From NCBI GenBank assembly GCA_004022145.1, contig RCNU01000002.1: a stretch of DNA of 64,000 nucleotides. One strand, given 5' to 3'. The position numbers were made by a program, and so were the translations under genes. The notes beneath the pieces are model-generated. The model saw only the letters and a program-made list of their open reading frames with translations. It was not told the DNA's origin and ran no database searches. How positions within the stretch are numbered: position 1 is the stretch's first letter; each line of letters begins with the position of its first letter. The stretch is from Paecilomyces variotii (Eukaryota). Below are positions 20,301 through 41,688 of the stretch, one piece after another.

Positions 20301-23300
20301 GACCCGGCCACCGATGGATGGGAACAACGCATCCAGTTTGTGTACGATTGTGTTCGTCGAAGTACTTTCAAAGCCAGGGCCTTTTATCCGCTCAGTATCT
20401 TCAACACAAAGAGGTATCTCGTCTCTTTTTACTTACCATGACCAACTGTAAGGGCCTTCGTCAAATCGGACTGCCTAAACTTCCAGTCGCCATTCGCTTG
20501 ATTGTCTGGCCGATCAGCAAACTCCCGCAAGATGTCTTCATAGCCATGCGCGAGGGCCCTGGCCGCGTCAGCATTATAAAGGGAATCTTGAACATTGAGG
20601 ACAATCTTTGTGTCCTCGTCACCATGTGTGGTCGTGTTCGTAATGATCGTTAAGGCAATGTCGTACGGCAGCTCAGCCTGGTCCTCAGCCATCATCTCGC
20701 AGTCACAGTCTAGAAACTCTCGTCCGCTCTCAACGCTCGTCTCAGCGTAGTTGATAAATGCCTGCGCCAGTGGTGAGTGGGTGGCTTGCCTGGAGACCTT
20801 GAGCTCGTTCAGAAGAATCTCGAGAGGGACCGCGTTGGAGAGAGCCGTGTGGCTCTTCTCGCGTGACTCGATTATGGCATCTGCAAAGGACTCCGACGCC
20901 CGCGCCTTCATTCGAAGGGGGAGCATGTTTAAGAATGGACCAATTCCCGTCCACATGTGTTCGTCTCGACGACAGCCGTCGGCAAAACCGATGCACACGT
21001 CTTCCGTAGCCAGCCAACGTAAGAGCAAAACCTTGAAGGCTGCCAGGTGAAAGTGAAACGGCGTGGACCTGTACTTGCGCGCGACGCGACGGATCTTGGC
21101 TGTAAGCTCGCTGCCAATACGGAACTCGCATTCTGGAAGTCCGGTGCGAGAGCTGTATTTCTCAAGAGGGCGGCGCATCGAGATGGTGCTTCGATGCAGG
21201 GAAAGGGGCTCGGGAATAGTGGCAAATTCGTGGCGCCAGAATCTCAGTGCATCGGCCCACTTGCCTGAGGCGTGCGCTTCATACAACGAATTGGAGTAGT
21301 CGAGGTATTGAAGGGGAGGCAAGAGATTCCCGATTTGGCTTTTGTAAATGCGAGCCAGGTCAGACATGAAGATTTCGGTGCTCGCTCGATCGAAGATGAT
21401 ATGATGCGTGCCCAAGGCAAAATAGTGATCAGTTGGAGAGTACGATAAAAGCAATACTCTCACTGTGTGGCCTCTACTTAGATCGAATACCGTTTTCTTC
21501 AGATCATTGTACGCGTTCGAAAGGTCGGTTTTAGTAAAGACGCGGCGATGCTCCAGCTCCAAAGTCGGTTCGGCAAGCACACCTTGCGTATGGACCCCAT
21601 CCTCTGTGAAGAAACGAGTCCTCAAACCCTCGTGACGCTCTCCCAAAAGGCGCACAGCCCTGTGGAGGTCGGGTACTCTTATCTCACCGCTAAGATGAAC
21701 CATGCCTGTGTTGTTTAGAGTTGTCTTGTCATCCAAAAGCTCGTGCACAAACATAAACACGGACTGTGTATAGGAGAGGGGGCCGGACCTCGCTATCGAA
21801 ACCTCTTTCTCCGGAGGCGGAGTTATAATCTGTGTCTCGTTAGTGTCGGATGTGGTAGCGCTATGGCTATCGGGGGTGTTTCTGGACGACGGTGTCGTGG
21901 AAGTATTTTTCATGTCTTCGGGTGGTGGCTGCACCTCAGGGACGCCGGCTGACGGACTTGCATCGGACAAACCCGGCGTCAGGTTAGCGGGAATTTCATT
22001 GAGCGCCTGATCGATAAGCTGCTGGAGCGAAACTCCCTTGATAATCTTCAATGCCGGAATATTAACCTGGAAATGGGTTAAAAACCACGAGCGTATGCGG
22101 ACCGCAACGAGGGAGTCTAAGCCGAGCTCGTCTGTGCGAACAGCTGGTGTCATGACATAGTCGTCTCCCATGTGGAGCATGGAGCACATTTCCTTAAGAA
22201 AATTGTCTATTAAAGATAGTGGTTAGGGCAGGAAACCATGGCTTGAATCGCTGAGCACTTACCAGTGATAACTTTGTGCACATCTGCAGTCGTCTTAGCA
22301 TCGGCCAGTTGATCGATGATCGGACCAACAGCCCCGGCAGTATCTGATGCTTTCTTTGAATGGGTCGCATTCGAGTCTCTGATAGTGAGACAGGCGAACT
22401 GTGGGAAATTGTACCAGAGAGGTCGGTCGGGCGCGTCGGCCGGAAGTGGTATCAACCCAGTGGTGATGTGCCATTCCATCTCGGAGCCTGGAACCACAGG
22501 GCTGGCGTTGATTGCCTCGGCGAACAAACAGTGAACATCAGATTCAGACATCCCTAGCAAACCCCTCTCTGCCAACGGGCGGGTCAAGGCATCGCCGATT
22601 TCTCGGGTGATGTATCCCGTCCCGAGGACGGGGCCCAGGTCAATAACGGACGCAGCCAGACCACGACGCCGCCGCTTTTGCGCCAGGCCGGCCATGAAAA
22701 AGTTAGCTGCAGAGTAGTTTGCCTGTCCGGCGTTCCCGGTGATACTGGCTGCAGAGGAGAAAAAGATAAAGAAGTCCAACGGCGAGTCATGGAAGAGGCG
22801 ATCGAGATTGATGCTGCCGTCAACCTTGGGGCGCAGAACCTTGACGAGGTCTTCCAAGGACATATCCCGAGTCAGAACATCGTTGAGTACCATGGCGCCT
22901 TGGGCAACACCAGCAATGGGAGGCAGGTTACTGGTGATGTTGGCATGGGTCTTTACGAGGGAGTCAAAATCCGTAATGTCACTGCCGCCGTTAGGTCCGC
23001 TGCCGTTAAATTTAAGAACAGAAGATGACAACTTACCAACTAGTGACAAAAGTGGTAGCCCCTTTGCGAGCCGCTTTTTGAAGCCACGCTTCACTGACCT
23101 TGGGGTTACGACTAGATATGACAATATATCTGGCGCCATTGCGTATCATCCAGTCTGCAAGTGAGAGCCCCATGTCTCTAGAAAGTCCCGCAAGCCAATA
23201 AGTCCGGTCATCCCTGAGAGAGACATTGACTGGCTGCACGGTTATGGGAAGCGCCTCGAAATCGGTCCAGCTCACAATTGTCACGGGTGAATGAGCACAG

Positions 23301-26300
23301 GGACTTGTATCCCCGTCCCTAGTTAATGCGCTGATATTGACTTCTTGAAGAGTCACACGGTCTGCCGCATCATTCTTGGCTTCATTGAACGTCAGGTCCA
23401 TGGCCGTATGAAGCAAATCTTTCAGCGCCATAGAAGAGACAAGGTCTTTTCGTGATTCGGTAGCGAAGATGGTGGACTTGCTGAGAATTTTAATATGGCT
23501 GGGGAAGCAGTTTATGAACACGGACGACTCGCGGTTTTCAGCCGCGAAATCGATCAGCAGGGAAACGTTCAGAGGGAACAATGACTCGAGTTCCGACTGT
23601 CTTGTGTACTCTTCAATATGAGTCCAATTGTTCTTGGCTGCCTCATCTCGCGATGAAGTTGTGAACGTGATGTCCTTTGCCCTTGACGAGCGAGCCAATA
23701 ATGCACCCACAATGGGGGGAGGGTCGTGAACCACCACAGCCCGATGTGTGGCAAGTTTCGCTTCAATTGTCAAGAAAGCTAAGCTAGAGACAGCCAAAGT
23801 TAGGATCAAAGACTCTGAGCACATTCGAAGGACCGCGGAGGGTATCTCTATCAGATTTGACGTCGCCACGTTGGCCAGTGATGTTACGGACGACGTCAGG
23901 CCTAAGTACTTGAGGCCTGTCGCTGCGCAATACCCTGACACAGCGAAAGCGCTCCCCCATTCCGTTCGGACCGCAAAGAGGCTGGAGTAGTTAATCTTCA
24001 CCGATGCGGTTGATCCCAACTCATCGAGTCTATTGGACTGCTGTTGGTAGAGGGTATAGGTCGCTGGATAGCCGCTTGGTTTATGTAGTAAGACTGGACT
24101 CAGCTGAGGTCTGACGGCACACTCAACCCGCCGCAGTGAGGAATTATACCTAGCGTTTGCATCTACTAGAGGCTCCAAACGTGGGATCCGCTGGCGCCCG
24201 TCTGCATCGATGACAATCTCCGACTCCACTGAGTACAACGTATTGTTGGTCTTGTTTTTGGGGTCTCGGTAATGCACCGATCCGGCGACCTGGAAGCGCA
24301 GAACCGCCTCAGCGAGCGCGCGAGGATCAATCTTGGAAGGAGGGATGCCTTCAAAGTCGACAAACTGGTAGCGAAGCTCAGGGGCCTCCCAGATGGACGG
24401 TCGCACGAACCCCGGAGCCATGTTGCAGTAAGGATTATCAAGGAGACGATTATGCGTGACCCAAACAATCGTCTTTTCGGATCCAAACACCGTCTTGAGG
24501 CTCTCTAGTCTCGGGGCTGTCATGTCCTTAAATACGGGCTGATCAAGGTCTTGCAGAACTAAAACAGTTGACGACTTGTCAACCTGGTCGTGGTCAAGGT
24601 CTTCAAGGAGTCCAACTCGGATGATGGCCTGGTGGCAGAAGGGTCTTAGAAGCTTCTGCACTCCATCAATGAGTCGCGATACGTGAAGGCTTTGACCCCC
24701 GACAATGAATAACTTCTCCAACGTGCCGACAGATGACTTCTTTGAAAAGAGTGGCACACCAGCCGCCGCCTGTGACATGAGCGGCTGCCGGACAAAGTCA
24801 ACCCAGTCATCTACGGCCTGGGACACCAGAACTGAGTTACAGAAAGGCATAGAATCATTGTTGGGCGTCATCGTGTCAACCCCAGAGAAGCCAGTCCTCC
24901 GAAGAATAGCATCCCACTTGGACTCGCTCACAGCAGGGCACCATTTTCGTCCCTCGTCGACACCTTGCCACCATCCTGGGAGACAGCCGAACAGGGCTGT
25001 GTGACGGATCAAGTCAACGTTCGTTATCTCATAGAAAATGAGGTATCCGCCCGGCCGAAGCAGCGATCGCACTCTCTTCAATGTCTGTTCTAGACTCTTG
25101 GTGGCGTGCAGAACGAGGGATCCGATCACAATGTCGTACGAGTGCTGATCAAAACCCTGTGCCGCTGTGTCCTGCTCCAGGTCCAACACGCGGAAGGACA
25201 TTTGGTCTCGGTAAGCGGCGAACTCTGCCTGGGCATCATCGAAGAATCCCGCTGATACGTCGGTGAATGTGAATGAACAAAAGTTATTCCCAATGAGCTT
25301 AAACACCTCGCGGGTCGCTCCACCCGTGCCAGCGCCAACCTCGAGAATATTGGCTCGGGGGTATCGGCGGGTGACCTGCAGAACGGTATCAGCGAGGACA
25401 GTCACTTGCCCCATCCCCAGGGCCTTGGCATAGTACTCGTTGAGCAGGCCATCCACCATGAGATGCTGAAGCATTGGAGTCTCCCCGCGAATAGCCCTTG
25501 GCATTTGTTCGCCCACGATGTGCATCGCCTTGACCTCGGGCAATTCATTATACGGCTGTGTCAGGGTCTTGATATCATCCAAGGTGTCGTTGGCCCAAGC
25601 CGGTTTGCCATACCGATGCTTACCTTTCATAACTAGATCGTGGGTGTACGCAGCCCAGCGGAGATATGCCGCGTAGGACGGATCCAACCGCCCTGGGTGG
25701 TCGGCAGGGACTTGGTCATCCAGCTGGCGCAGGTAGAAGTAGTGGCCTCGCTCGAGAATCTCTGCCAGCTTTCGTTGCTCTGGGGTCGCAATGAATGGAT
25801 CTGGGATATCTGCGTCAGGTCCTGCATTCACCCAGCGCGTTTGATAAAACATAGTCCGATCGTCGTCTGGGGTCGCAGGAGAGAAGGGCACGACATGGAG
25901 CCCCTCCACCTGGACTGCTGAATAGGCCCCGTCCCCGCCATGGATCTCAGCATCACCATGGAACCCAGATGACCTGTCCGCCATTTTTACTTGGTCATCG
26001 CTGATCACCGAGACGAAAGGAACGGGCTTTGTTGTCCAATGGCGCGCGCAAAGGGCCGGGTTGAGTCGGATCCTTTTGATATACGTGGGCAGGTGCAATG
26101 ACCAGAGCGTTCCATCTCTCGGGTAGCTGTAAGCCAGGATAACTGAGTGAATAGCGGCATCCAGCATGCCAGGGTGGACCGTCATGCAATTCTCGCCATC
26201 GTTGTATTCGGCCAATGTGGTGCTGAGAACTCCCACGGCCTTTCCAAGCCTTCTGCTTAACCCCGACAACGCTCTGAAAGGACCCGTATATCCGTAGCCC

Positions 26301-29300
26301 ATTTCCTGCAGCGAGGAATAGAAGATGTCGGTCGGGACATCGGCCATGGCATTGTCCTGTTTTCCATCACTGGCAGGTAAGGTTCGCTCGCTAGGGTCGC
26401 CCGGAATGACACGAATCATGCCACTTGCTGCTAGTTCCAGAGAGCCGCTTGAGGAGTAGAACTCGTAAGTAAAACTGCCTGTGGCCGTCGAATCATGATG
26501 CGACCGGTTGATACCACCAATGGAGAATCGTACTTCAATACTGGAACTGGAAGAATCATCGAATACCATGGCCTGATGAATCACGAGATTCTCAACCTCA
26601 ATAAGACGAATAGCCTGGGCATCTGTCAGGAAAGGGGCTGCCTCCAGCGCCGTCACAGCGTATCCTGCCGCAGGAAAGACGCTCTGGCCCTGGATCTTGT
26701 GGTCTTGGACCCAGGGTATATCCTGGGGGCGCAAAACAGCTTTCCATGAAAGGTTTTGCGGGGAGCTGGAGCTACAAATATTGCCAAGAAGAGGATGGAC
26801 GGGAGAGCTCCTGAAACGAAGATTGCGAGATGTGTTGGACTCATGCCAGTGGCCCCCATTGTGGTTATGGTTCCATTGGTACCGAGGAAGGTCCGCCAGG
26901 AACCGACCCTTTGATGATCCTAAGCCACTCAATGCGTTCTCGTATCTGTCAAAGTTGACGAAATCACTTTCTACATGAGTCCAAAGGTATCCAAGTGCGG
27001 ATGAGAAACTCCAGGCTGCCTCAGTTCCTCGCTCCAGGAGCCCGGTATAGGGCAGCTGGCCAATGTTCAACTGCTCAAGGATTTGCCGCACAGGTCCCTT
27101 CAAAGCCGGGTGTGGTCCCACTTCGACAATTGCATCGAAAGGTCCTAGCTCGGTCAGGGCTCGCTCGACAGCCTGTTTGAATAAAACTGGCGACAGGAGG
27201 TTATCGACCCAATATGAGGCACCCAACTCCGTCTCCGCCATGTCTAACTCAACCACTACACTCGATACCCACAGGCAATCGGGTTGGGGCGAGGACTGAG
27301 GTGATGCTGTCTGAAAGCTCCGCACAGAACTCAAGTATGGCTGTGAGCATGGTATCATGTGGTGCGAATGGTAAGCCTTGTCGACTCTTAGCAGACGGGC
27401 CGTTTTCCCTTCGTCCTCAAACAGCGCAGCAATTTCCTCCACCGCGTCCCTATCGCCAGATAACGTAATGCTGTTAGGAGAATTGCAGGCCCCGACATTG
27501 ACTCGTCCTCGAAAGAACTCGTCGTGGCAGACTTCGCTTGCATCTTCCATGCTGGTGCTAACGGCCAGCATGGCACCCGGTGCACCGTTAGCTGCTCCGC
27601 CCAGGCGAGTGCAGTGAAAGCCACGGTAATACGCAATTCGTATCGCATCAGCCGCAGATAGGCGGCCTGCAGCGTACGCCGCGCCAATTTCACCGGAAGA
27701 ATGACCGACGACGGCGGCGAATTCCACCCCGGCTTCATGAAGAAGATCCACGAGAATCAGCTGAATGGCTGTGCATAAAGGCTGCGATATCTCAGCATCA
27801 CCGACCTTAGTCTCGGATACATCCGCCAGGAGCTCTTTCCGAAGCGTCCAATGAGGGCGGTCTTGTTCGTTGGGGAGATTCGCAAGCTCAGCATCCAGCT
27901 TGCTCAGTATATCGGACGCAAATTTGGAGGTTTCTATCAGCTGAGCGCCCATTCGCGCCCACTGAGCACCCTGCCCCGTAAAAATACCCAAGATTTTTAC
28001 CTTATGTCCTCTTGCACTAGCGGAAGACCCCACGGTTGTCAACTTCAGCCTCTGGTCAAGCTGTAACATCTTTGAGTCACTGCTGGCGATGTTCTCTAGA
28101 CTGGTGTGCAACATCTCGGCAGAGGCGGCCGATAGTGCGACTCGAAGCGGAAGACGGGACCGTCGTGAACGCAATGACCAAGCAAGGTCTGCGAGACGAA
28201 TATCGGGATGTTCCGATAGATAGGTAGCATGAGCAGCCAGACTGGAGACCAGAGACTCCTTCGACTGTGCGGAAAAGACAAATGACCTAACCATATCACT
28301 TGCGCCGTCTTTGTCCACATCCTCATGCATCCCGTCCTCCAGGCTTTCCAGGATAACGTGGGCATTTGTACCGCCAAATCCAAAGCTATTGATGCTAGCA
28401 CGTCTGGGTTGTCCTGGGGCTACCATTGGCCACGGTATGAGCTCACTGGCAATGCGAAGGTTTCTGCACCAAGGTTCAACGCGCGGGTTAATTGTGAAAT
28501 CCAAGACCTGGCCATCAAGTATCCGGTTGCCGTTGGGTGGGATCTCGCCGTGACTCAAGGCCTGCGCAACCTTTACGATGGCCGCAATTCCGGCAGTGCT
28601 CTCTGTATGTCCGATAACTGTTTTGATGGAGCCCACCACGATCTTCTCGGCACCATTCATCTCCATGGGCTGATCGTTGCTGTTTTCGAAGAAGGCTTTA
28701 TGGATAGCCTCTGCCTCGATGGGCTATGTACATGGTCAGCTTGCAAGTAGCACTCTCGCTGTATAGGCAAGAAAGGGGCTGGAGGGGCACTTACGTCTCC
28801 TGCCGGTGTTCCAGTTCCATGAGCTTCGACGTATTGGCATCGATCTGCCGATAAAGCCAAGTCCAGCCCAGCACGGGCATATACGTCGCGGATTAATTGG
28901 ACCTGAGCCTTGGCTGTAGGCATTGTGATACCGGGGCTTCGCCCATCTTGGTTAACACCGGACTCTCGAATAAGACACTCGACATGGTCGCCATCTGCTA
29001 ACGCCTGTTCGAGGGTTTTGAGCACCACGGCTGCGACCCCGTCTCCGCGGGCGTATCCATTCGCATCATTGCCCCACATCCGGGAGCGTCCATCGGGCGA
29101 CAGCATCTTCAAGTTGCTCTCGTAGATGTAAGGCTCAGGCCCCAGTAGAAGGTTGGTCCCCGCTGCCACTGCGACAGTGACCTCGCCGGAGCGGAGGGAC
29201 TGCACTGCTTGATGCAGCGCCACGAGTGACGAAGAACACGCCGTGTCGACTGTGAGCGACGGGCCGTGCCAGTCGAAGAAGTAAGAGATTCGGTTGGATA

Positions 29301-29822
29301 CCATGCTGCGAGCAACACCTGGATCCAATGAAATTAGTACGCGGCATTCAGTAGACATTGGACCATCTTACCCGTGCCGTGATACAACGGGACGCTTTGC
29401 AGGTCCCGATACTGCTGGTACTCATAATCACCGTACATCATACCGACGAATACGCCAGTATCGGAACCCCTGAGCCCATCAAGTGTCTGTCCAGCAGCTT
29501 CCAGGCTCTCGTAGACCGTCTCCAGGAGTATGCGCTGTTGGGGGTCCATGGCAGCCGCTTCGGCGACCTGGAGATTGAAAAAGCGAGCGTCAAAGCTAGC
29601 GACGTTCTCCTCGAGCAGGTACGAGCGGCGAACATTACTATGGCCCGGAAACTGGTGGTCTGAGTGGTAAAACCCTCGCGGGTCAAATCGGCCTGCGCTC
29701 AGGAGGTCTCGTGAAACATCTCGGGGATTGCAGAGGAGGTCCCATAACTTGGAAGGGGTGCTCGCACCACCCGGAAATCGACAGCCAGTGCCAACAATGG
29801 CGATGGGCTCGCTCTGTGGCAT
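17382..29822 (-). CDS. Hybrid highly reducing PKS-NRPS (KS-AT-DH-cMT-ER0-KR-ACP-C-A-T-R), at least 5 introns
   Basis: [60 protein letters not shown] and HPGMLD; c[80 protein letters not shown] and YISSK. Introns near 29320-29370, 28727-28794, 22982-23037, 22207-22262 and 20380-20436 join the six ORF segments. Confidence 0.97.
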
Positions 29823-30289
29823 GTCGGACTGATCGTGGATTGTAGGTTAGATGTTGGAAGTGTAGATAATTCGATAATATTGGGTTGGAACAACGATTTC
29901 CCCGGAGGACGGTTCACTATAGTGTCTATAGCTACTGACATGTCCCTTTCATATCATTACAGAAATCAAAAAGGCCATAGATATGGCTGGGCCCCTCTAA
30001 GTGCCCGGAAGGAAGGTGATCTCCCGGAGAGTGAAGTTATCGGGACCCATCGCTACAATCCCGGCGTGGGCCTTCCGATCAGTTCGGAGGGTTCGAGCCA
30101 AGACAAGAATGCCCCGAGCCAGTTTCCGTGAACCCATATTCGGACGCCAGCTGCTATGTTGGTCAGAGGGCTTGAAGCGGCACAATGACGAAGACAAAGT
30201 AGATAGATACAAATGTGGGCGACGGCGCTGCTCCATAACATTGACGCGCAACGCAGTCAGCGGCATAGCACGCAAATACAACTTCAACA

Positions 30290-31435
30290 ATGGGCTCTCT
30301 TGCGCGGGATTCCATGGACTGCCTTATCCAGGGCCCCTCGGGCCAAGGACAGAGGGCCGTTCGTTCACGCCCTGAAGTAAAGGCGCCCCATGATGTTTTG
30401 GTCTGCGTCTCTGCCGTGGCCCTGAACCCAACGGACTTCAAGTCGCCGGCGTCCAACCCTAGTCCAGGGGCCATCATGGGTTGCGACTTCATGGGATACG
30501 TCGTCTCAGCCGGCGAGGACGCGGACAAACTTTTTCCCTCCTCCACGCGAGTTTGCGGCTTCGTTCACGGCTCCAACCCTGGCAATCCCGACAAGGGATC
30601 GTTTGCGCAGTACCTTGTGACCGACTCCCGCCTGTTGGTCCGAGTTCCCGATAGCTGGACCGATTTGGACGGCGCAGCTCTCGGCGGGGTTGGATGGGGT
30701 ACCATTGCTCTGGCCATGGAGGTATCGCTACGGCTCTCTGGGCGTCCGTCCAAACCAGCTGCTCCTCAAGAGGATGGCTCCAGGGTTCCCGTGCTGGTTT
30801 ATGGTGGTGCCACGGCCACCGGCACCATGGCATGCCAGATACTGTCAATGTATGTATATCGTTGCGTTTTCCCTTCCAGCCGCAGGGGCCCATCCTAACT
30901 CGCCTGTAGGTCCGGTTACAAGCCCATTGCCACAGCGTCCAGCATCAGCTCGTCCCTGGTGCAAGATTACGGTGCCGCTGCAGTTGTACCGTACTCATCT
31001 GCCAGCTGTGGGGAGACCATTCGTGACCACCACACCGGCGGGAATTTGCGAAGCGCTCTGGACTGCATCAGCTCGCCAGAGTCCGTGGAATGCTGTTTCA
31101 CGGCCCTGGGTCGCATCGGGGCACACTACGCCAGCCTTGACTTCATCCCGGACGATTGGAAGACGCGCAAGGCCATCAAGGTCTACATGCCCCTGACTTA
31201 TGCTCTCCACGGCCACGAGATTCTGTTCAAGGGGCCGTATCATCGGGATGCAGACCCTGCCATGTTGGAGCTGGGCAGGCGGTGGCGAGACGAAGTGCAG
31301 GGCCTAGTAGATGCTGGACGCCTTCGACCGCACCCCGTTCGAGAGGTCCAAGGGAAGTGGCAGGGGATTATTGATGGACTGGAGATGATGAAGGCTGGAG
31401 AGATTCGAGGCCAGAAGCTTGTGGTAGCCTTGTGA
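30290..31435 (+). CDS. Trans-acting enoyl reductase (LovC/TenC type MDR), intron about 30849-30909
   Basis: AVALNPTDFK, GCDFMG, GSFAQY, VLVYGGATATGTMACQ, ALDCIS and C-terminal GQKLVV; divergently paired with a PKS-NRPS that has no recognisable active ER motif. Confidence 0.93.
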
Positions 31436-32087
31436 GCTGGATGACGCTTTTTAGATGAGATATTATATATTAGGTATATATATACTCGGCGCCGTGCTAA
31501 GTGGTAGCTCCCTTAGCCAGCTAGTAAATTAGTCAGCAGGTCCGGGGGTTAACTAACTAGTTAGTTAACTAGCGTAACTCCCGCCGACCTATCTAGTATT
31601 TAGTTTCAATATAACTATCTAACAATAACTATCTAAATCCTAAATTAGTTGCTTACCGAGGTCGGGAGCCCCATGGCCCGTGCTCGGAACCAATCCCGCT
31701 CACGGACGACATGATTTCGATGGCCGATGCGCACCGTCTAGCGTCCCGATCCGGAGCCGGTAGGCGGGAACCTGTGCCGGGGCGCGGTACCGGGTTTCCA
31801 GATGCAGAAGTATGAAACAGGTCTAGAAGCTCCGAATGGAGAACACCAGTTAAGTATGATTGCACCAGCCCAAGGCTACAAAAGAATGATATCTTTACTT
31901 CTGGGAAAGGCTGCCGACTCGGGTGTTCAAGATAATAATGGAGAACTGCTGGGGGACAGAAGAATGTGATCCACGTTTTGCAACACAGAGGACCATCCAC
32001 GACTCCGAAGATAGTGCATGATTATCTCAATGTTTTTCTACATGTCTCTGACTTCTCGTGCATTCCCACTACCTCGGTCATCGTTCA

Positions 32088-33842
32088 TTATATGATAACC
32101 TTCCGAAGACGCACGAAGCACTGGCGCGGCTTGTTCACCACGGCAAGGCACCCTCCATAGCCAGACATAGCGTCGGGGCACTTGAGCAGCTCAAAATGCC
32201 ATATAATCATTGTGAGCATGATTCTAAATTCGACATACGCCAGCCTGCGTCCAAAGCATGCCCTAACCCCGAGACCAAACGGGATGCAGGGCCCAGCCCG
32301 GGAGTCAAATATCCAACCGTCACTGTGGTTGCTGTGTTCTGGAATGAGCCAGCGCTCGGGCCTGAACTGATTGATATCCGCATCATCCCAATTTCGTGTC
32401 TCTCCACGTTCCTTTGCCTCTCGCGAGCGCGGACTGCGGCGGCTCTGATCTACGTCGAGCGCCGGCGAGAGCATACTATGGCTATTCTGCAGGAAGAATA
32501 CGAGCGTGCCTTTAGGGACCCTGTGCCCCAGCAACGTTGTATCTTTGGTCGCCTCGCGATCCATGATAGGCACGGTCCCGCCGCAGCGTAGGATCTCTTC
32601 CATTGTGGCTTCCAGCAGAGGTACCGAAGTCTGCATGATTTCCTCAACTGTTGGAGCGCGTTTCTCAGCTGCAGCAGAGCTGAAGGCTGCGAAGAGAGCT
32701 CGCCGAAGCCGTGACTGCGACTCAGGATGATCAGCAAGGAGCTTAACACCCCAGCACATCGTTGTGCTCATGGTATCGTGGCCAGCGATGATGAACCCAA
32801 AAACCTCGTCCATGACGGCTGTTGAGAAAAAGTTGGGCTTCCGTCTCTCCTTCTGAGCGTGGCTTTCCTCCCTGTCCACAATGCGGTCCACAGCAGACTG
32901 CTCCCATGCCCGACCGCTGTTCGAATGTTGGCTCTGCCGGCGTGCCTCGACGGCCTTTTCGATCTCCCGTCGTATACAGCTGTCTTTTATCCTCATCCGG
33001 CGTTTGAACTTTGGTGTTACTTTGACGTACCACCATTTCATGCGAGGCGATGGTGCACTCTTCACCTGCTCCATGGCATCCCCCAACTCAAGCATCGACT
33101 CGATGGCCTGATTGATCTCTGCGTGAGGGAAGTCGACGGCCTGGTCTTTCTCTGCTTCCTGTTCATTCGAATGAGACGTTGTAATCAGGACATCCTCCAG
33201 CCTCTGAATCTGCGGCTTCGTGGCATTGTGGGGAAACTTGGGCCCAAAAGAAAATGCCAGAACGGCGTCGAGGGTCAAGTGGAAGATGTCATCGGTGGCA
33301 GAGAACGGCCGGCCAGCTGCCAGCCTTTCCTTAATCTGCCACAGCTCCACGAAGCGTTGGCTGCTGGCATAGATGCTGGGAGCGGCCACTTCTCTCAGGA
33401 AGGCTGGTGTCATGGTGTCCTGGACCAGGCGGCGGTGGAACTTCCACTCTGGGCCCGTCTTCAGTGTGAACTGCTGCCTGTTCAGCAGCCCACTGAACAT
33501 CTCGGCCGTCAAGCTGGTGCGATCAAAATCCTTGATGCGGTTGAGCATTACATCGCGGCACTCTTCATAGTCGCTCACTAACAAAACAGGCTTGCCCATG
33601 GGTCGGATGAAGATCTGGCTAATGACGGACTCGGACTTGATGTTCTGGTCGCGCAGCCATGCCACAACATCGCCCGTCTTGGATACTTGCGTGAGCATGT
33701 CCGGGATGTCTCCGAGGAACCTGTTAACAGAGACCGCATTGTAGGGAATCCCGGGCAGCGGGCGCGGAAAGGCCGATATGTACCCAAAATAGAACATAAC
33801 CACCAGAGCAAGGGCGATGGCCACAGTCGTAGCTGTAAGCAT
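32088..33842 (-). CDS. Cytochrome P450 monooxygenase (intronless, 584 aa)
   Basis: N-terminal membrane anchor and PRPLPGIP hinge, I-helix AGHDT, K-helix EILR, PERW and heme motif PFGLGVRACFG. Confidence 0.95.
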   Translation of the reverse strand: MLTATTVAIALALVVMFYFGYISAFPRPLPGIPYNAVSVNRFLGDIPDMLTQVSKTGDVVAWLRDQNIKSESVISQIFIRPMGKPVLLVSDYEECRDVMLNRIKDFDRTSLTAEMFSGLLNRQQFTLKTGPEWKFHRRLVQDTMTPAFLREVAAPSIYASSQRFVELWQIKERLAAGRPFSATDDIFHLTLDAVLAFSFGPKFPHNATKPQIQRLEDVLITTSHSNEQEAEKDQAVDFPHAEINQAIESMLELGDAMEQVKSAPSPRMKWWYVKVTPKFKRRMRIKDSCIRREIEKAVEARRQSQHSNSGRAWEQSAVDRIVDREESHAQKERRKPNFFSTAVMDEVFGFIIAGHDTMSTTMCWGVKLLADHPESQSRLRRALFAAFSSAAAEKRAPTVEEIMQTSVPLLEATMEEILRCGGTVPIMDREATKDTTLLGHRVPKGTLVFFLQNSHSMLSPALDVDQSRRSPRSREAKERGETRNWDDADINQFRPERWLIPEHSNHSDGWIFDSRAGPCIPFGLGVRACFGRRLAYVEFRIMLTMIIWHFELLKCPDAMSGYGGCLAVVNKPRQCFVRLRKVII

Positions 33843-34468
33843 CCCGGCTGTGTCTTGTTCTCCGATAGTCCACGATGTACGCTTGCGTGTTGGTGTGTGT
33901 ATGTGTGTGTATGTGAATGTAAGAATGTGTAATTGCAGAGGCGGCGGCTAACCCATTGGCTGTTCTGAGATGTGACTTTTAGTTGCTATCCTGTTGAGTG
34001 ATCCAGGATAAGAACACTCAACAGTCTCCAATAAAGCATTCACGCTCAAAACCTACTTATGTAGGACTTTCCCATGCAATAATCCTATGAACATGCAGGT
34101 CTAGTGCTGCAGTCTCGGACAATTATCCTTCGCAAGGCCTCTGCTTTACCAACCCCAAGCCTCCGATGCTCCAAAACCCTCCTAGGGAATGCTCCGACTC
34201 CACCAGGGTTCATCCGAAGCAGGCCACGAAAATTTCCATTTAGCTAGTGGGGTTGTCTGAATCTGTTGAGGGACTCCAGCTTTTTCTGTCGCAATAAGCA
34301 ATACTTGGAAAGATGTTAAATTCCAATGGCAACGTCCGCCAAGCGTACTGGTGATAATATCTGTATTTGCATGTACCAAGGACTTTAGAGACGAATTATA
34401 ACTATATAGGGCGATTAGTTAACTGCTTCACCCTAGTACATATCCATCCAAACCACGGTAACACCGTT

Positions 34469-35843
34469 CTAAGGAGACGTTTGGATGACCTGCTTGCCCG
34501 CTCGCTGGATAAGTTGGTTCTTGATCTCGTTGGGCTTCTCGGAGTAGGCCCGCTTCCAAATTTCCACCTCTCCACCTCCGTAGATGACTCCCACGCGCAT
34601 TGTCGAGAGCAGGTTGTGTGCGGCGTTTGAGTGCTGGTAGACACCGCCATTGAAGGTGGCTGTTGCATCCTTCCCAATGGCCGAGGAGATGAACGCTTTG
34701 CCGCCGGGGTGCTCTTCAATGAAGTCAGCCACATCATGAACGACCCCTGCGATGACTACCAGGGCTCTCCCATCAGCTTTTGCCGACTCGGTTTGGAAAT
34801 CGTCCCATGTGATGATGGGCAGCTGAGAAATTGGGGTGCCCCAGTCTAGTTTAGACCGCCAGGCGTCGAGCTTCTTTTGCTCCTGCTGTAGTCGGCCCTT
34901 TTCAATTTCGTTCTGTTTAAATTGCTTGAGGTCATATGCCAGGCCAAGTTGCTTCCACGTCCAGATGGCCCACTTTGTTGGGTCATACTGCCACCACTCG
35001 ATTGCATTCCGGTAATCCGACGGGAACTCATGATGGAAATTATGGTACCCTTCCCCCAATGTGACGAGGGCCGTGATAACATGATCCCGGGGTGAGTTTC
35101 GATCGTCAAAGGGCTGGTCTCCCAGCCAGTGAGCCAAAGAATTGACGCAGAAGGTAGCTTGTTGCACAAAGGTCGCCCGTAGAATACCCGCGTAGATAAA
35201 GCCACCCACCCAATCGCCCCAGCCAATGCCGCAAACTAGAGTAGGGAAGATAAGGCCCATAAATAGAACAGCCTTGATATAATTACGGTGCTGCCATATC
35301 ACAATCGGGTCCTTATTAAGGTCGGTGATATCCGCCCGACCAATGCTCTTCGGGTTTTGTTTCATAATCATCCAGCCAAGGTGGGAATACCAGAAGCCTT
35401 TGCGCACGGAATAGGGGTCCTTTGTAGTGTCAGTATACCGGTGATGGGCACGATGGCCCCTTGACCACCACCGAATCGAGCCCTGGACGGCGCCAACGCC
35501 GACCGCCGCCAGATAGATTTTGAGAGGGGTTGAAGCTCGGTATGAAGAATGTGCCCAGAGGCGATGGTATCCTATCGAGAGATGTCAGGGTCTTGTTCCT
35601 CGTCGCCCACAGAACCTTGACGTACGCACCGGCTGTAATACCCAACCCAGTATTAAAGTAGTAGAAAATGGCAAAGGCAGCCGTGGCTCGCTGTAAGGGA
35701 TAATGATAGGCAGCGATGAAGCCCATGAGTGGGATGACTATGATAAAGAAGACACTCAGCCAGTTAACATGCTGGTACCAATTTCGCCATGTGATGGGCA
35801 TCTCCGTGATGTGAGCTGTTTTCGTGGGTTTCGAGTCTGCCAT
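34469..35843 (-). CDS. ole1: Delta-9 acyl-CoA desaturase with C-terminal cytochrome b5 domain (Ole1/SdeA/SdeB family), intron 35572-35629, 438 aa
   Basis: After splicing: [39 protein letters not shown] (three His boxes), VNSLAH, and b5 heme motifs HPGG and HSNAA. The symbol names the family; orthology to the housekeeping copy is not established. Confidence 0.93.
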
Positions 35844-36456
35844 TTCAGGATCATGCGAGTGTGTATGTGTGTTCTGATTGTTAGATCACGTCGGACGACG
35901 GGACCCAAATTTTAAACCCGAGGAAGGACATCTCACTAGGGAAGACGAGGAAAATATCACATGAGGTCTACGTATTATGTTGGGTGTTGGTGCCGTTTCG
36001 TTGGGCGTCGTCGCAATGTACAGAGAGGTAGCCGACCCTCGGTCAACAGAAGATTCCACGCCGCAAGGGGTACATTATTCCCAACGCCCCAACATATACT
36101 ACGGTGCTTGAAATCATACGAATGGTACAGTCGACATGTCAGCTTCCATCAGTGATTATTAATAATATAGAGTAACTACTGCGTGCCGCTTGGCTGTGTT
36201 ATTTGTTCAAGCGATTACAGTGTCTACCAAAAACAGGAAATTTTTTTCAAATTAAGTTGTCGATACTAATGCTTTCTCAAGGGCTAGGGACTTGGAGATG
36301 AAGAAGCTTGAATTCTCTATCTATCTAGCTACTATGCGTGTAAAACCCTAACCGAATGCAGAAGGAGGTAGGCGATTGCCTACTAGGTCCCTAGGGACCG
36401 AAAATGCTTCAAATGAGAGTCAGGCTGCCTTAAGAGAGGTCTCCCAGTAGGCATGC

Positions 36457-37555
36457 TTACCCAACATACACCAACGTCTGCAGAATCTCAAGAAACTTTT
36501 GCTCTTCCTCAATGACGTGGTTGCCTTCCAGCGGTGGGCTCGGATAGAGTGCCTCCAAGGGAGTCTCGCGAATGCGAATAGTGACAGGCTGCTCGGTCGA
36601 CTCCCCCGGTGCTGCCACTACCTCGACAATATTACCCTCACCGAACTGCGGTTCGGTCATAATCTTGAATGTTTCCTCGGCGGCTTGTTCGGCGGTAAGG
36701 CGGATGCTGTAGCAGTATGTTGTTAGCTCGCGGCGGTCGACTGAACAGAGCGGAGTTCAAACGTACTCTGTGGGCAGAAGCTGGCCTCTGCAGTAATCGG
36801 CATCGAAAATTGGCGTCTATGCAAGATCTATAGATTAGTATGGAAAGGTAAAAGTAGAGGAATTGGAAGCTCGCCTTGACTGGTCCCAGGCAAACAGCAG
36901 CGTTGCGGATGCCAAACATCCTCCTCAGCGGGCCGAGACACTTGACCATGCTATTCACGGCCGCCTTGCTACTAAAGTACAGCGGCGACTGCATCAGGTG
37001 AACATATCCGCAGACGCTTGACAGCCATACCAGGTTTCCGTCAAAGTTCATCTCGGCGTCGGGGTGGTAGAACCAGTAGTTGAGGGCGATCTGTGCCAGC
37101 CGAATGGGCCCCATAGCGTTGACAGCATGGGTCTGGTACACGCCGGGGTTGCAGTCCACCTTGTCCCTCGCCGCTGGAGACACGCCGGGGGGCTGCCAAA
37201 AGGTGCTAGAGGGCGGCTCGTAGATAGCAGCGCCGTTGACCACGATATTTACCGTGCCGTATGTCTCGATCGCCTTGTCAAACAGCGCCTGAAGTTGGGC
37301 CCAGTCCGATACATCGGTCTGCTGGAATATGGCGGACGCCTTCCCGTTAATGCCAGGTACGGTACTGGCATCTTGTAGTGTCTTCTCGGCCTCCGGTCGT
37401 AGAGTGAGGTCGGCCATAACGACCGAGCAGCCCTCCTGCAACAGAATCTTGGTCAGGGCATGGCTGATGCCGGAGCCCGCGCCCGTCACGATGGCAACCT
37501 TGCCTTTGACACTGTACGCCGTGGGGGGGTGGTCTTGCGTTGGCTTTTTGTCCAT
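36457..37555 (-). CDS. Short-chain dehydrogenase/reductase (two introns; 3' end uncertain)
   Basis: KVAIVTGAGSGI Rossmann motif, TDVSDW, VVNGAAIYEP, catalytic YFSSK; introns 36817-36874 and about 36708-36765 give GPVK-TPIF..PTD-IRLT..EPQFGEGNIVE. Confidence 0.85.
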
Positions 37556-37727
37556 TTGGGGCTGTATCAAAGAAATGGATCAGTGAATGGACAAGCCGGA
37601 GGCAAATCGGGTAGCCGTACAGTAGCTGGTTCACTTTCGAAAAAGCAATGGATTCACTGCACTAGATAGCTGCATCTATCTCTCTTTTGTGGTTCCTCTG
37701 ACATTTCTATCCCTCTTGCAGATGAAC

Positions 37728-37789
37728 CCTCCGATAGAAGCCCCCGATAGAAGCCTCCGATAGAAGCCTCCGATAGAAGCCTCCGACAG
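37728..37789. repeat. 13-bp tandem repeat (CCTCCGATAGAAG) about 4.8 copies in the SDR/BVMO divergent promoter
   Basis: Read directly: cctccgatagaag cccccgatagaag cctccgatagaag cctccgatagaag cctccgacag. Confidence 0.9.
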
Positions 37790-38034
37790 TGGAAGGTTAT
37801 CGGAATGCGGAACTGGTACGCTCGAACAAATTTCCCACCAACACAGCAAGAGGTAGATAGATAATGGGCACAGAAACCCTTTGATGTAAAGAACTTACGG
37901 AGTAGGTGTCCGATCAACCTCCCGAGCTTTACATATCAGTCCACTGCAAACCGACTGTGGGTAATTGCAGCTCCCCTAATCCCTCATCCCGCAAGGACGT
38001 TACAATCAAGGGCTACTATTCAAAGTTGCTCCAT

Positions 38035-38056
38035 CTCTTCTTCTTCTTCTTCTTCT

Positions 38057-38088
<32 letters not shown>
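38035..38088. repeat. Compound microsatellite (CTT)n(CT)n just upstream of the BVMO start
   Basis: Read directly from sequence. Confidence 0.9.
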
Positions 38089-38093
<5 letters not shown>

Positions 38094-38107
38094 CACTTTG
38101 TGCAAGC

Positions 38108-40117
38108 ATGGTTCGATCTCCCAAGAGCGTGTCAGAGACCTGTGATCCCAGCCCCGTCCGGCAGGAACAAATTCATCGAAAGTATGCTGAGGAGAGGTCA
38201 AAACGACTGCGGGCCGAAGGTGTTGGTCAATATGTGAACCTCAACACCACTGATGACCTGCGGTTGAAACGGTTCTTACATGATCCGTGGGATCAGCGCG
38301 CTGAATCCCCAATCCGGCTCCAACCAGGTGCTCGATACAAGATAGCCATCATGGGCGCGGGATATGGAGGGCTACTATATGCCACACGGTTGCTCGACTC
38401 CGACGCCGGCTTGGAACCCCAAGACCTAGTCATCATTGATACTGCGGCTGGATTTGGAGGGACTTGGTACTGGAACCGCTACCCTGGGCTCATGTGCGAT
38501 ACCGAGAGTTACATCTACATGCCCCTGCTGGAAGAGACCGGCTACATTCCCAAACATAAGTACTCATACGGAGAAGAGTTGCGGGAGCACGCCGAGAGAA
38601 TCGCCAAGCAGTGGAAAATCGACGACCGGGCTATTTTTAGAACTGAGCTGCATCGGTGTACATGGAATGATGACCGCTCCGAATGGATTGTCGATCTGAC
38701 ACAGCGGTCACCTTCCCCCGATGGCGTATCCACGAGCGGCACAATCTCCGCGGGCTTTGTGATACTCTCCCCGGGCTTGCTAAATAGGCCAAAGCTTCCC
38801 AGAATACCTGGCCTAGGGACATTCAACGGACCAAACTTCCTCGCCGCCAGGTGGGACTACGCCGCAACCGGAGGCAGCCCATCGCGTCAAGAGCTCGACC
38901 AGCTGCAGGATAAGAAGGTGGGCATCGTAGGGACCGGAGCCACTGCCGTGCAGATAGTACCCGTGCTAGCCAAATGGTGCAACCAACTTTACGTCTTCCA
39001 GAGAACCCCCGCGTCGGTGGACGTGCGTGGCCAGCGACAGACGGAACTGGATGAGTGGGCGTACAAGATACGGACTGGTCCAGGTTGGCAACAGACCCGA
39101 CGTCGCAACTTCCTGGCGTTTGGAGCCAACACCGAGCCCAGCGAGCCGGTCGACATGGTATCGGACGGATGGACTCGCTTTCCATCCTACTGCGTCCTGA
39201 CCGGATGTCCCGCCGCAATGAACGTGACCATGGAGACAGCCACGGAGTACATCTCCGAGATGCATCGACTTGACCTCATTCGGTCTGATATAATCCGCGA
39301 ACGGGTCAGCGCCGTCGTTAAAGACGAGATCACGGCTGCGAAGCTCAAGGCCTGGTACCCGGGCTGGTGTAAACGGCCCACGTTCCACGACGAGTACTTG
39401 GAGGCGTTTAACAGACCCAACGTGCACCTCATCGATACAGACGGCCGGGGTCTAGACCGTATCGTTGACACCGGGATAATAGCAAATGGGAAGATGCACG
39501 ACTTAGACCTCATTGTGTTCTCAACTGGCTTTGAGGCCGGCACGTTTGGCAGTCCTGCGCAGCGCTGCGGCGCGCAGGTCTTTGGTCGCGGAGGCAGGTC
39601 AATGGATGCCAAATGGGCGGACCCAAGAACTGCGGATAGTCAGATATCTCTAACGGTGCATGGAATATGTGCCAGGGACTTCCCCAATATGTTTTTCACC
39701 AGCAGCAATCAGGCCGGGATTGCTTCTGTCTTCACACCCACATTGGATGCCTTCTCGAAACACGCAGCCTTTATCATATCAAAGAGCCTGAAAAGGCTAA
39801 AGGATACAAGAAGAGAGGGTGATTCATCGATTGAGCACACAGTTGTTGTGGAGCCCACATCCGAAGCTGAAACCGTTTGGGCTAACCGCGTGCTCTCGGC
39901 CGCTGCTTCACTGGCACCCATAGGGGGATGCACCCCTTCATACTTCAATGCCGAGTCCAAAATAGACAGCATGCCAATACACGACCAAATCAAGGCTGCG
40001 GCAACAACACGATGGCCCGCCGGACTCAATGACTTTGTTCTTCAATTGGAAGGCCTATGGAGCGCCAACGACGACAGTGACTTTGATATAAATATTGTTC
40101 GAAAGGGCCTAGATTAG
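38108..40117 (+). CDS. FAD/NADPH-dependent monooxygenase, Baeyer-Villiger (type I BVMO) family, intronless 669 aa
   Basis: GAGYGG (FAD), GGTWYWNRYPG, variant fingerprint FNGPNFLAARWD, GTGATAVQ (NADPH), FQRTP, WCKRP (catalytic Arg), STGF, CTPSYFN. Confidence 0.93.
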   Translation: MVRSPKSVSETCDPSPVRQEQIHRKYAEERSKRLRAEGVGQYVNLNTTDDLRLKRFLHDPWDQRAESPIRLQPGARYKIAIMGAGYGGLLYATRLLDSDAGLEPQDLVIIDTAAGFGGTWYWNRYPGLMCDTESYIYMPLLEETGYIPKHKYSYGEELREHAERIAKQWKIDDRAIFRTELHRCTWNDDRSEWIVDLTQRSPSPDGVSTSGTISAGFVILSPGLLNRPKLPRIPGLGTFNGPNFLAARWDYAATGGSPSRQELDQLQDKKVGIVGTGATAVQIVPVLAKWCNQLYVFQRTPASVDVRGQRQTELDEWAYKIRTGPGWQQTRRRNFLAFGANTEPSEPVDMVSDGWTRFPSYCVLTGCPAAMNVTMETATEYISEMHRLDLIRSDIIRERVSAVVKDEITAAKLKAWYPGWCKRPTFHDEYLEAFNRPNVHLIDTDGRGLDRIVDTGIIANGKMHDLDLIVFSTGFEAGTFGSPAQRCGAQVFGRGGRSMDAKWADPRTADSQISLTVHGICARDFPNMFFTSSNQAGIASVFTPTLDAFSKHAAFIISKSLKRLKDTRREGDSSIEHTVVVEPTSEAETVWANRVLSAAASLAPIGGCTPSYFNAESKIDSMPIHDQIKAAATTRWPAGLNDFVLQLEGLWSANDDSDFDINIVRKGLD

Positions 40118-41688
40118 CTGGTAATTTGGCCAGATTAGCATTGATAGCAGTAGAACTGTAAAAGGAGCTTGAATAGCGCAGTATTAGTCGGGTTGTAAAG
40201 GAAGCGGTGAGAAGCTTGCTTAATTGAATCTAGGAGCTAGGCAAGGCCTATATAGGGTCACCTGCATCACGTGACACTAGTAAACAGGGCGCCCAAACAG
40301 GGGCCACCGGAGGGGGTCTCTAACAGTAGCCTGCTAGTGACACCAGGTACGGAGTATTGAATGACAGTTAGACTGGAGAGTCTACTCTATAAGAGTATCG
40401 TGATATATTATATTATCGTGACAAGACGGCCGGAAGGAGAAAGCAAGACTCCCCAAACAGGCAATGCAGCCTCCGATCGCAGCACCGACTGCGTCATGAT
40501 GACTAAATTCTCCATCTCCTGCGATTCGTCCGCGCGTCTGCCAAAAGACCTCTGAAGTACCGACTTCAGTCGTTCTTCCTCGGATACCAATTCCTGAGTC
40601 TCCTGGATTGACGCTCTTTCAGTTCCTGACCTCTGGTTAATACCGTACCGCTGCAGAGGTTGGATCCTTGTTGTGGAAACTCGTCCTGCCTCCGTCTCCC
40701 CAGTCTAGTGTAGAGAATACGGCGCAATGGTGTTCATTCCTATCTTCCCCATCTGCTTCCAGTGCGGTACCGATCAGAACCCTTGTCACTGCAAGGTAGT
40801 CGGTCCTACCTGCGGTATGTTAACCGGTCCCCTTTCAATTGACGTGAAGGAGCAACGTGGTAAACTGATGTAAATGGACATGTGCTAATTCGTCTCCTTC
40901 AGGTTTCATTGCTTGCGTTCTGGCTGCTGTATGTGGGCTCCTTCTAACAGATCAGATATCGAGACATTCTATGAGCGGTTGATTGACTTGATAATGTTAG
41001 ATTGTATGCTGGCCGGCTTCTCTCTTCTGTGGTTGTTGCGCAACCCAAACTGGAAATGAGTAAGTCTATCTATTTTCAGCATGATAATATACTTGCCAGA
41101 GATTCTGGTGAAAGCCCGAGAACCAATTTCTGTCCCTTTCCAGTGCTGGATCTCAAAGAGGTGGTTCGATAAGAAACAAGTAGTTAACTGTATACAGCAT
41201 GCTCGGATTCCCCGTCAAATTGAACGCAGAAGTCAGCAATACAATCCCATTCTAAGTGCATTGGATATGCGAAGCGCATCGGGGATGCTACAACATCAAG
41301 TTTATGTATGATGGAATATTTCTTTTAGGCGTTTTGGACAGGATGTGAAGTCCCCGTTGTTCTTTGATGGGGAGTACCCCCTCTGCGTTGGTGATTGTGA
41401 TGGGTAGCTCCTAGTTCATCCACTCGTAACATCAGCAGCTCGAATATGAAATTATAACATGATCTCACACACGCATGCCCTTTCCACACGTATTTCCCAA
41501 GTCTCTTTCACAGACGCACTAACCAACCAACCACCCAGCCTCCTATCTCTTCTTCTTCTTCCTCCTCCTCCTCCTTCTTCTCCTATCCTCATCAACCTCT
41601 TTCTCAAGCAACCCCTCTAGACACTTACACAAGAATCTCAACCACCGAGGAATCAAAACCAAATACGAATCGCAAAGCAAAGTCCAAA

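Follow-up and report, generated by a model that had tools for sequence, protein, structure and literature searches.

An Ole1-type delta-9 desaturase paralogue kept within a biosynthetic cluster of Paecilomyces, Aspergillus and Penicillium: a possible self-protection gene

A 64,000-nucleotide stretch of DNA from the fungus Paecilomyces variotii (GenBank assembly GCA_004022145.1, contig RCNU01000002.1), called the window below, contains a gene for an Ole1/SdeA-type delta-9 desaturase with a fused cytochrome b5. The gene lies inside a biosynthetic cluster that includes a polyketide synthase-nonribosomal peptide synthetase (PKS-NRPS). Judged from protein accession order in other genomes, the desaturase is a conserved member of this PKS-NRPS cluster family, which occurs in Paecilomyces, Penicillium and three Aspergillus sections (Fumigati, Nigri and Candidi). 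The best of the four readings weighed here, to which we give a probability of roughly 0.4 on the strength of sequence comparison, is that the cluster carries a spare Ole1 that would serve in self-protection.

Results

The desaturase gene is intact and internal to the cluster

The desaturase is encoded on the minus strand by an intact two-exon gene whose spliced product has 438 aa (Table 1). This length equals that of the annotated P. variotii protein P0001 (KAJ9319535), and the two proteins are 98% identical across exon 2 and 99% identical over 437 aligned columns. Both expected Pfam domains were found well above their cut-offs: FA_desaturase (PF00487; E 1.6e-19, 71 bits against a cut-off of 29.7) and Cyt-b5 (PF00173; E 4.6e-19, 68.7 bits against 23.7). 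The three histidine boxes (HxxxxH, HxxHH and HxxHH) are present as HRLWAH at residue 74, HRAHH at residue 111 and HNFHH at residue 248, and the haem motif HPGG is at residue 359 in the C-terminal cytochrome b5 domain. The gene is located three genes from the PKS-NRPS, with a cytochrome P450 on one side and a pair formed by a short-chain dehydrogenase/reductase (SDR) and a flavoprotein on the other. The original prediction, a full-length desaturase-b5 fusion with three histidine boxes between the P450 and the SDR, was therefore confirmed by the splice model, the Pfam matches, the motifs and the neighbouring genes.

The desaturase is linked to the synthase in other species

Orthologues of the PKS-NRPS were searched with a 1896-aa frame covering AT-DH-MT as the query. 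The targets were limited to proteins of 3319-5000 aa, and the search is blind to split or fused gene models. The orthologues fell into four 90% clusters, namely those of A. thermomutatus (80% identity), A. carbonarius (76%), A. campestris (74%; the A. candidus synthase is a member of the same cluster) and Penicillium atrosanguineum (73%). The next-best synthase was that of A. unguis at 59%, and all others were at 54% or lower.

In all five species with a listed orthologous synthase, a desaturase orthologue was found on the same contig as the PKS-NRPS, the contigs of the two records being equal in length. The two are separated by five accession steps in A. thermomutatus, A. carbonarius and Penicillium atrosanguineum, by six in A. 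campestris and by seven in A. candidus; linkage in these species was read from accession order and not from DNA. Whether homologous clusters retain the desaturase had been raised together with the original prediction, and these clusters do. The offset is three in the window compared to five to seven in the other species, which means that the desaturase was kept through rearrangements.

These findings bear on a different explanation, that the gene is an ordinary second lipid desaturase of a broadly sdeB-like kind, which serves membrane adaptation and lies beside the PKS-NRPS by ancient synteny with no role in the cluster. We consider this possible, though on balance unlikely. Linkage within five to seven gene models in every synthase-bearing species, across three Aspergillus sections and Penicillium, argues against it, as do the internal position of the gene between the P450 and the SDR/flavoprotein pair, its retention at variable offsets, and the patchy distribution of its clade, whose topology departs from the species tree at Conoideocrella and at A. 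niger GLA14263. One linked gene speaks in its favour. In A. unguis, an Ole1 paralogue is found 11 accession steps from the PKS-NRPS on the same 2.5-Mb contig (KAL4811312, KAL4811323), and this linked copy itself belongs to the sdeB clade.

A tree of 14 PKS-NRPS rows contained a six-row clade (98) with A. unguis as its sister (100). Branching within the clade was not resolved and, thus, nothing can be said from it about joint transfer of the synthase and the desaturase.

The desaturase belongs to a separate Ole1 lineage

After the P. variotii proteins, the nearest relatives of the desaturase form a taxonomically patchy set at 80-90% identity, which includes some Aspergillus and Penicillium species, Nannizzia gypsea, Emmonsiellopsis, Conoideocrella and Lecanicillium. 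Its identity to the mainstream Ole1 proteins of Pezizomycotina is 74-78%. A tree of 84 rows was calculated with a quick IQ-TREE run under LG+G4 and rooted on Orbiliomycetes. Reference clades were recognised by their 90% clusters, of which that of P0269 holds proteins named sdeA and that of P0065 holds A. nidulans AN4135, which is sdeB.

The window gene and P. variotii fell into a 22-row clade (SH-like approximate likelihood ratio test, SH-aLRT, 99). The 15 rows of Eurotiales sdeA formed a clade of their own (98), and this clade grouped with Onygenales, Dothideomycetes and Lecanoromycetes. The sdeB rows formed their own six-row clade (99) inside a 13-row sdeB/Flavi clade (99), with the window's clade elsewhere. 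Both the window's clade and the sdeB/Flavi clade are nested in a 57-row group (SH-aLRT 99) that otherwise consists of Sordariomycete Ole1.

Two identities for the gene were tried and rejected. Forcing the window's clade to group with Eurotiales sdeA cost 80.7 log-likelihood (lnL) units and was rejected by the approximately unbiased (AU) test (p-AU 0.001, for a group named after the tree had been seen), and membership in the sdeB clade is contradicted by the position of the window's clade outside it (SH-aLRT 99). On the AU results and the tree, the gene is neither orthologous to sdeA nor placed inside the sdeB clade, while a deep common origin with sdeB is possible. The original prediction had cautioned that copy number matters, since A. 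nidulans has two ordinary paralogues, sdeA and sdeB.

The A. nidulans proteins SdeA (AN6731) and SdeB (AN4135) resemble the window protein in being three-histidine-box desaturases with a C-terminal cytochrome b5, and about 74-76% identity was found between it and the sdeA, sdeB and Flavi cluster representatives. The window protein differs from SdeA and SdeB in its patchy distribution, in its linkage to a PKS-NRPS and in a tyrosine at position 402 that is invariant in its clade.

Some placements in the tree are observations in their own right. Both extra Eurotiales lineages fall within Sordariomycete-type Ole1 and not with Eurotiales sdeA. Conoideocrella, a hypocrealean Sordariomycete, and two Onygenales sequences lie inside the window's clade among Eurotiomycete rows. 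GLA14263, a record with the label A. niger, was placed with section Fumigati, apart from the other section Nigri rows. The odd placements suggest old transfers or mislabelling.

A further Ole1 paralogue was seen next to a peptide synthetase in section Flavi. In A. pseudonomiae, the extra paralogue P0058 (KAE8405491) is accession-adjacent to P0398 (KAE8405492), a 5354-aa four-module NRPS that is oddly placed in the 90% cluster of the Flavi desaturase. P0398 was considered as a desaturase-NRPS fusion and this was rejected, since blastp matched it to A domains in four places and to no part of a desaturase, which identifies it as a multi-module NRPS.

The clade is an extra copy where both copies are visible

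In the two species in which both copies can be seen, the window's clade is an extra copy. Penicillium bovifimosum has a clade copy (KAJ5143933) in addition to a canonical one (KAJ5144216), and Penicillium glabrum/frequentans has one clade copy and two sdeA-type copies. A canonical copy (P0427) is also carried by Thermoascus crustaceus, a member of the same family as Paecilomyces.

It is very improbable that the window gene is the housekeeping Ole1, either as the only copy or as the sdeA orthologue, and sits next to the cluster by chance. Such a reading would fit the result that no canonical P. variotii sdeA was found among the cluster members listed. The AU test against grouping with Eurotiales sdeA and the canonical copies in other clade holders and in Thermoascus crustaceus all argue against it.

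The sequence resembles that of an ordinary delta-9 desaturase

As a measure of conservation, we took the 177 alignment columns in which 45 canonical Ole1 rows agree to 98% or more. The window's 22-row clade keeps 174 of these near-invariant columns, compared to 166 in the sdeB/Flavi rows. By strict criteria, a single swap, R402Y, is specific to the clade; it is at the end of the b5 domain and outside the desaturase core. Residue 402 is tyrosine in all 22 clade rows and arginine in 44 of the 45 canonical rows, in 13 of 13 sdeB/Flavi rows and in all four Cordycipitaceae rows. A signature in the substrate tunnel was sought under the same strict criteria and none was found. Five species pairs were matched between the clade and sdeA: in two of them identity was lower in the clade, and in the other three it was equal or higher; on these values, divergence within the window's clade is similar to that of sdeA or somewhat faster.

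The desaturase core also aligns with mammalian SCD1 (PDB 4ZYO and 4YMK; human and mouse) over about 222 residues (E about 1e-54). The two share the metal-binding histidine boxes, the NS(x)AH motif and, in the printed alignment to 4zyo, a Gln/Trp/Thr set that is described as forming the kink in the substrate tunnel of SCD1 (PMC8533217). In contrast to SCD1, the window protein has a fused cytochrome b5, and the tryptophan that follows the kink threonine in SCD1 is a phenylalanine.

With 174 of the 177 columns kept, the desaturase looks like a working enzyme and not like a re-tooled tailoring enzyme. Its profile looks like that of a predicted delta-9 desaturase that is under strong constraint and has not switched substrate.

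The product is probably of the variotin type

The PKS-NRPS is intact, since in a tblastn comparison it runs collinear with residues 5-4055 of the 4058-residue A. thermomutatus orthologue P0121, interrupted by five short gaps the size of introns. Its R domain retains the NAD(P)H motif TGATGFLG and the Tyr-x-x-x-Lys pair as YISSK. The same motif and pair are present in the R domain of ccsA, a reductive-release synthase. In the A domain, the aspartate of FDxS is present, a feature that cannot discriminate an alpha-amino acid from gamma-aminobutyric acid (GABA). The domain set would fit a methylated C12 polyenoyl amide.

Variotin is reported to be made by P. variotii var. antibioticus and consistently by P. 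formosus (PMC2789542, PMC8733401), and also by A. viridinutans (PMC2275200). A. candidus is reported to make (R)-variotin, formosusin A and candidusin (PMC8733401), and A. unguis variotin B (PMC11277891). These producers overlap with the holders of the synthase in A. candidus, A. unguis and a Paecilomyces. A clade desaturase is carried by A. felis, which is presumably a member of the viridinutans complex. Since published variotin producers overlap with PKS-NRPS holders, the product of the cluster is probably a variotin-type N-acyl-pyrrolidinone antifungal. Literature searches with the protein identifiers found nothing relevant to this cluster, and no variotin gene cluster was reported in the titles and abstract openings of the papers reached that mention variotin or pecilocin.

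In the scheme that we propose, the PKS-NRPS and the trans-acting enoyl reductase (trans-ER) would build a methylated C12 polyene acyl-aminoacyl thioester, with the MT domain methylating the chain and the trans-ER giving the saturated tail. The R domain would release the product reductively and, together with the SDR, could give the lactam via a cyclic carbinolamide. Oxidative tailoring would be carried out by the P450, the SDR and the flavoprotein, with the P450 as the candidate for the even-position hydroxyl. The desaturase would contribute nothing to the molecule in this scheme. The structure of variotin, which is partly described in one report (PMC8733401), has no feature that is known to require a delta-9 desaturase.

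A rather improbable alternative is that the desaturase is itself a tailoring enzyme, whose di-iron centre desaturates or hydroxylates the polyketide, for example near C8-C10 of the C12 acyl chain counted from the carbonyl, on a CoA-bound, carrier-bound or free intermediate. Conservation of the desaturase in the cluster would agree with this and, if the product is variotin, the 8-hydroxyl would be close to the position of the iron centre in a delta-9 enzyme. Membrane enzymes of the FA_desaturase family, with JamB-type enzymes as examples, act as tailoring desaturases and acetylenases in other pathways. JamB-type enzymes belong to the same Pfam family as the window desaturase and are likewise found inside biosynthetic clusters. 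Their sequences have moved far from those of housekeeping desaturases, and their substrates are short chains bound to carriers, whereas at conserved sites the window desaturase can hardly be told from housekeeping Ole1. A tailoring-type divergence of the substrate-binding core was not seen in it: 174 of the 177 near-invariant columns are kept, as are the residues of the tunnel kink, and the sole clade swap is at the end of the b5 domain, whereas a substrate shift normally marks the core. Also, the PKS has its own DH domain and the trans-ER, and a P450 is available for hydroxylation.

Discussion

The case for self-protection

We favour the reading that the cluster carries a spare Ole1, in which the desaturase would supply delta-9 desaturase activity that protects the producer. 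The enzymatically ordinary sequence fits a spare target better than it fits a re-tooled tailoring enzyme. Delta-9 desaturase is essential in fungi and has been pursued as an antifungal target. Protection could come about in two ways. The gene could encode an insensitive copy of the compound's target, in which case R402Y is the only candidate marker, or it could provide an extra dose of Ole1 that offsets an insult to lipids or membranes. The narrower proposal, a dedicated cluster allele of Ole1 that is insensitive to the compound, with Arg402Tyr marking insensitivity and the sdeB-type copy of A. unguis acting likewise, is doubtful.

A precedent is found in the PF1163A family. There, pfa-like PKS-NRPS clusters are described as carrying copies of Erg25 or Erg3, which the authors regard as probable self-resistance genes (PMC11731387). 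The likeness is that a PKS-NRPS cluster contains an extra di-iron oxidase of lipid metabolism from the endoplasmic reticulum membrane, and that this extra gene is kept in related clusters. The target of PF1163A, Erg25, is known experimentally, whereas both the product and the target of the window cluster are putative. Biosynthetic clusters are known to carry duplicates of essential enzymes, and a role of this sort for Ole1 is unreported in the literature reached, in which neither Ole1 nor SCD was found described as a cluster-borne resistance gene. The word "desaturase" is absent from the main text of the FRIGG paper (PMC6517689), and its supplements may list candidate families. A 2025 mBio review gives as desaturase inhibitors only synthetic compounds and two plant products, with direct binding demonstrated for none.

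Points that weigh against it

Several results weigh against self-protection. The desaturase clade was found in 16 named species without a listed orthologous PKS-NRPS. In Aspergillus, these are A. niger (GLA14263), A. taichungensis, A. floccosus, A. terreus, A. ibericus, A. sclerotioniger, A. sclerotiicarbonarius and A. felis; in Penicillium, they are Penicillium glabrum, Penicillium bovifimosum, Penicillium samsonianum, Penicillium verhagenii and Penicillium riverlandense; and the others are Nannizzia gypsea, Emmonsiellopsis and Conoideocrella. The synthase search also missed P. variotii, whose strains carry the desaturase. Since the search was limited by size and missed P. variotii, the absence of the synthase from the 16 species is weak evidence.

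A single origin of the window's group and the sdeB/Flavi rows, to the exclusion of other fungi, is not the topology of the free tree and was not rejected by the AU test (lnL difference 26.9, p-AU 0.196). In addition, sdeB has an ordinary role in growth. A. nidulans sdeB is reported to encode a working desaturase that is required for optimal growth in the cold, and deletion of sdeA and sdeB together is lethal (PMC12345192). The ordinary lipid desaturase described above gains from the clade's presence in the synthase-unlisted species, from the AU result, from the working sdeB of A. nidulans and from the fully conservative sequence of the window gene.

Promoters and RNA data did not add to the case. 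The four cluster promoters were scanned for Zn-cluster-type CGG/CCG pairs and for shared 7- to 9-mers. Three 9-mers were found in three of the four promoters, two of them derived from one simple repeat, and such sharing did not exceed that of the controls. Among 300 random sets of segments from the window, 52 share at least one 9-mer and 17 share at least three, so that the sharing among cluster promoters is not significant. Four RNA-labelled metatranscriptome runs from food fermentations were compared with positions 22000-41000. Contigs from these runs (up to 27 kb) span genes, introns and intergenic DNA alike and, thus, the region is present unspliced. No splice joint was found within these positions in the four runs, including at the desaturase intron. 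These data suggest that the libraries hold the region as DNA or as unspliced material, from which transcription cannot be concluded.

Two further points concern the product and the copy number. The assignment to variotin, which we regard as probable, was drawn from the overlap of producers and not from genetics, and the extra-copy status was established in two other holders of the clade and not in the source genome.

Taken together, the original self-resistance proposal is supported in part: the distinct paralogue, its linkage to the cluster and its ordinary-looking sequence favour it, and the synthase-unlisted holders and the possible common origin with sdeB/Flavi weaken it.

Neighbouring genes and other features

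The features of the cluster are collected in Table 1. Beyond about 41 kb, ordinary genes follow, including those for a protein kinase A (PKA) regulatory subunit and a forkhead protein. Upstream of the cluster, an amidase (156-1712, two frames), a VIT1-family iron transporter (3003-4135, two frames) and a major facilitator superfamily (MFS) transporter (8369-9499) were observed. In the flavoprotein, Pfam NAD_binding_8 was above its cut-off, Pyr_redox_2 was weak, and a second Rossmann match was found at residues 257-316.

Table 1. Coordinates of the cluster genes, the parts of the desaturase gene and the 12-mers in the window
Feature	Position	Strand	Evidence	Remarks
Zn2Cys6 transcription factor	13861-15528 (frame); start codon 15417	-	Pfam Zn_clus E 5.8e-6	Likely cluster regulator
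PKS-NRPS	17394-29831	-	Pfam, tblastn collinearity, R-domain alignment	KS-AT-DH-MT-KR-ACP-C-A-T-R
Trans-acting enoyl reductase (MDR family)	30269-31435; model 30290-31435	+	Pfam ADH_N E 1.3e-10, ADH_zinc_N weak	Two adjoining frames; divergent from PKS-NRPS
Cytochrome P450	32088-33947 (frame); first Met 33842	-	Pfam p450 E 1.7e-47	
12-mer ACACATACACAC, second exact copy	33895-33906	-		P450 5' leader, within a 10-nt tandem repeat at 33893-33915
Desaturase gene	34469-35843	-		
Desaturase exon 2	34469-35571	-	Open frame, splice model, Pfam, SCD1 match	1103 nt including stop; histidine boxes 1-3, remaining desaturase domain, cytochrome b5 domain
Desaturase intron	35572-35629	-	Excision merges both frames; product length equals P0001	58 nt, GT..AG
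Desaturase exon 1	35630-35843	-	Open frame, splice model	214 nt, ATG at 35843; N-terminus and first transmembrane region
12-mer ACACATACACAC	35859-35870	-		Desaturase 5' leader, 16-27 nt upstream of ATG
SDR	36638-37579 (frame); start codon 37555	-	Pfam adh_short E 5.2e-28	3' end of model uncertain; frame may run into an intron
Flavoprotein (FMO/BVMO-like)	38108-40117	+		Two dinucleotide-binding sites; divergent from SDR

The window contains two exact copies of the 12-mer ACACATACACAC, one in the 5' leader of the P450 and one in that of the desaturase. At up to one mismatch, there are four matches compared to 0.16 expected, and none of 100 shuffles reaches four. The pattern was picked after looking at the sequence and is, therefore, only a weak hint of shared regulation; ACACATACACAC may be a shared cis element or mere CA-rich simple sequence. 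At 37724-37786, in the short promoter from which the SDR and the flavoprotein diverge, there are 4.8 copies of the 13-nt unit GAAGCCTCCGATA, which form a row of CCG-N10-CCG pairs. This row is a possible array of sites for a Zn-cluster factor.

Two differences from the window were seen in the metatranscriptome runs. At 36022, in the intergenic DNA upstream of the desaturase, two bases are missing in the contigs of X1, X3 and X4, while X5 has no depth there. A C>T change at 31876 is present in all four runs. Both are strain variation relative to the window.

Implications

If self-protection through an Ole1 target is true, the cluster's product would be the first known case of an Ole1-targeting natural product from a fungus, and the desaturase the first self-resistance gene of the Ole1 type. 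A spare Ole1 linked to the synthase could then lead to the target of the cluster's antifungal, which is probably of the variotin type, and the cluster could supply the gene cluster for variotin, an old drug. Even if the resistance idea fails, the desaturase represents a third, patchily distributed Ole1 lineage in Eurotiomycetes, and the grouping of this lineage with Sordariomycete-type sequences bears on the origin of sdeB-like paralogues.

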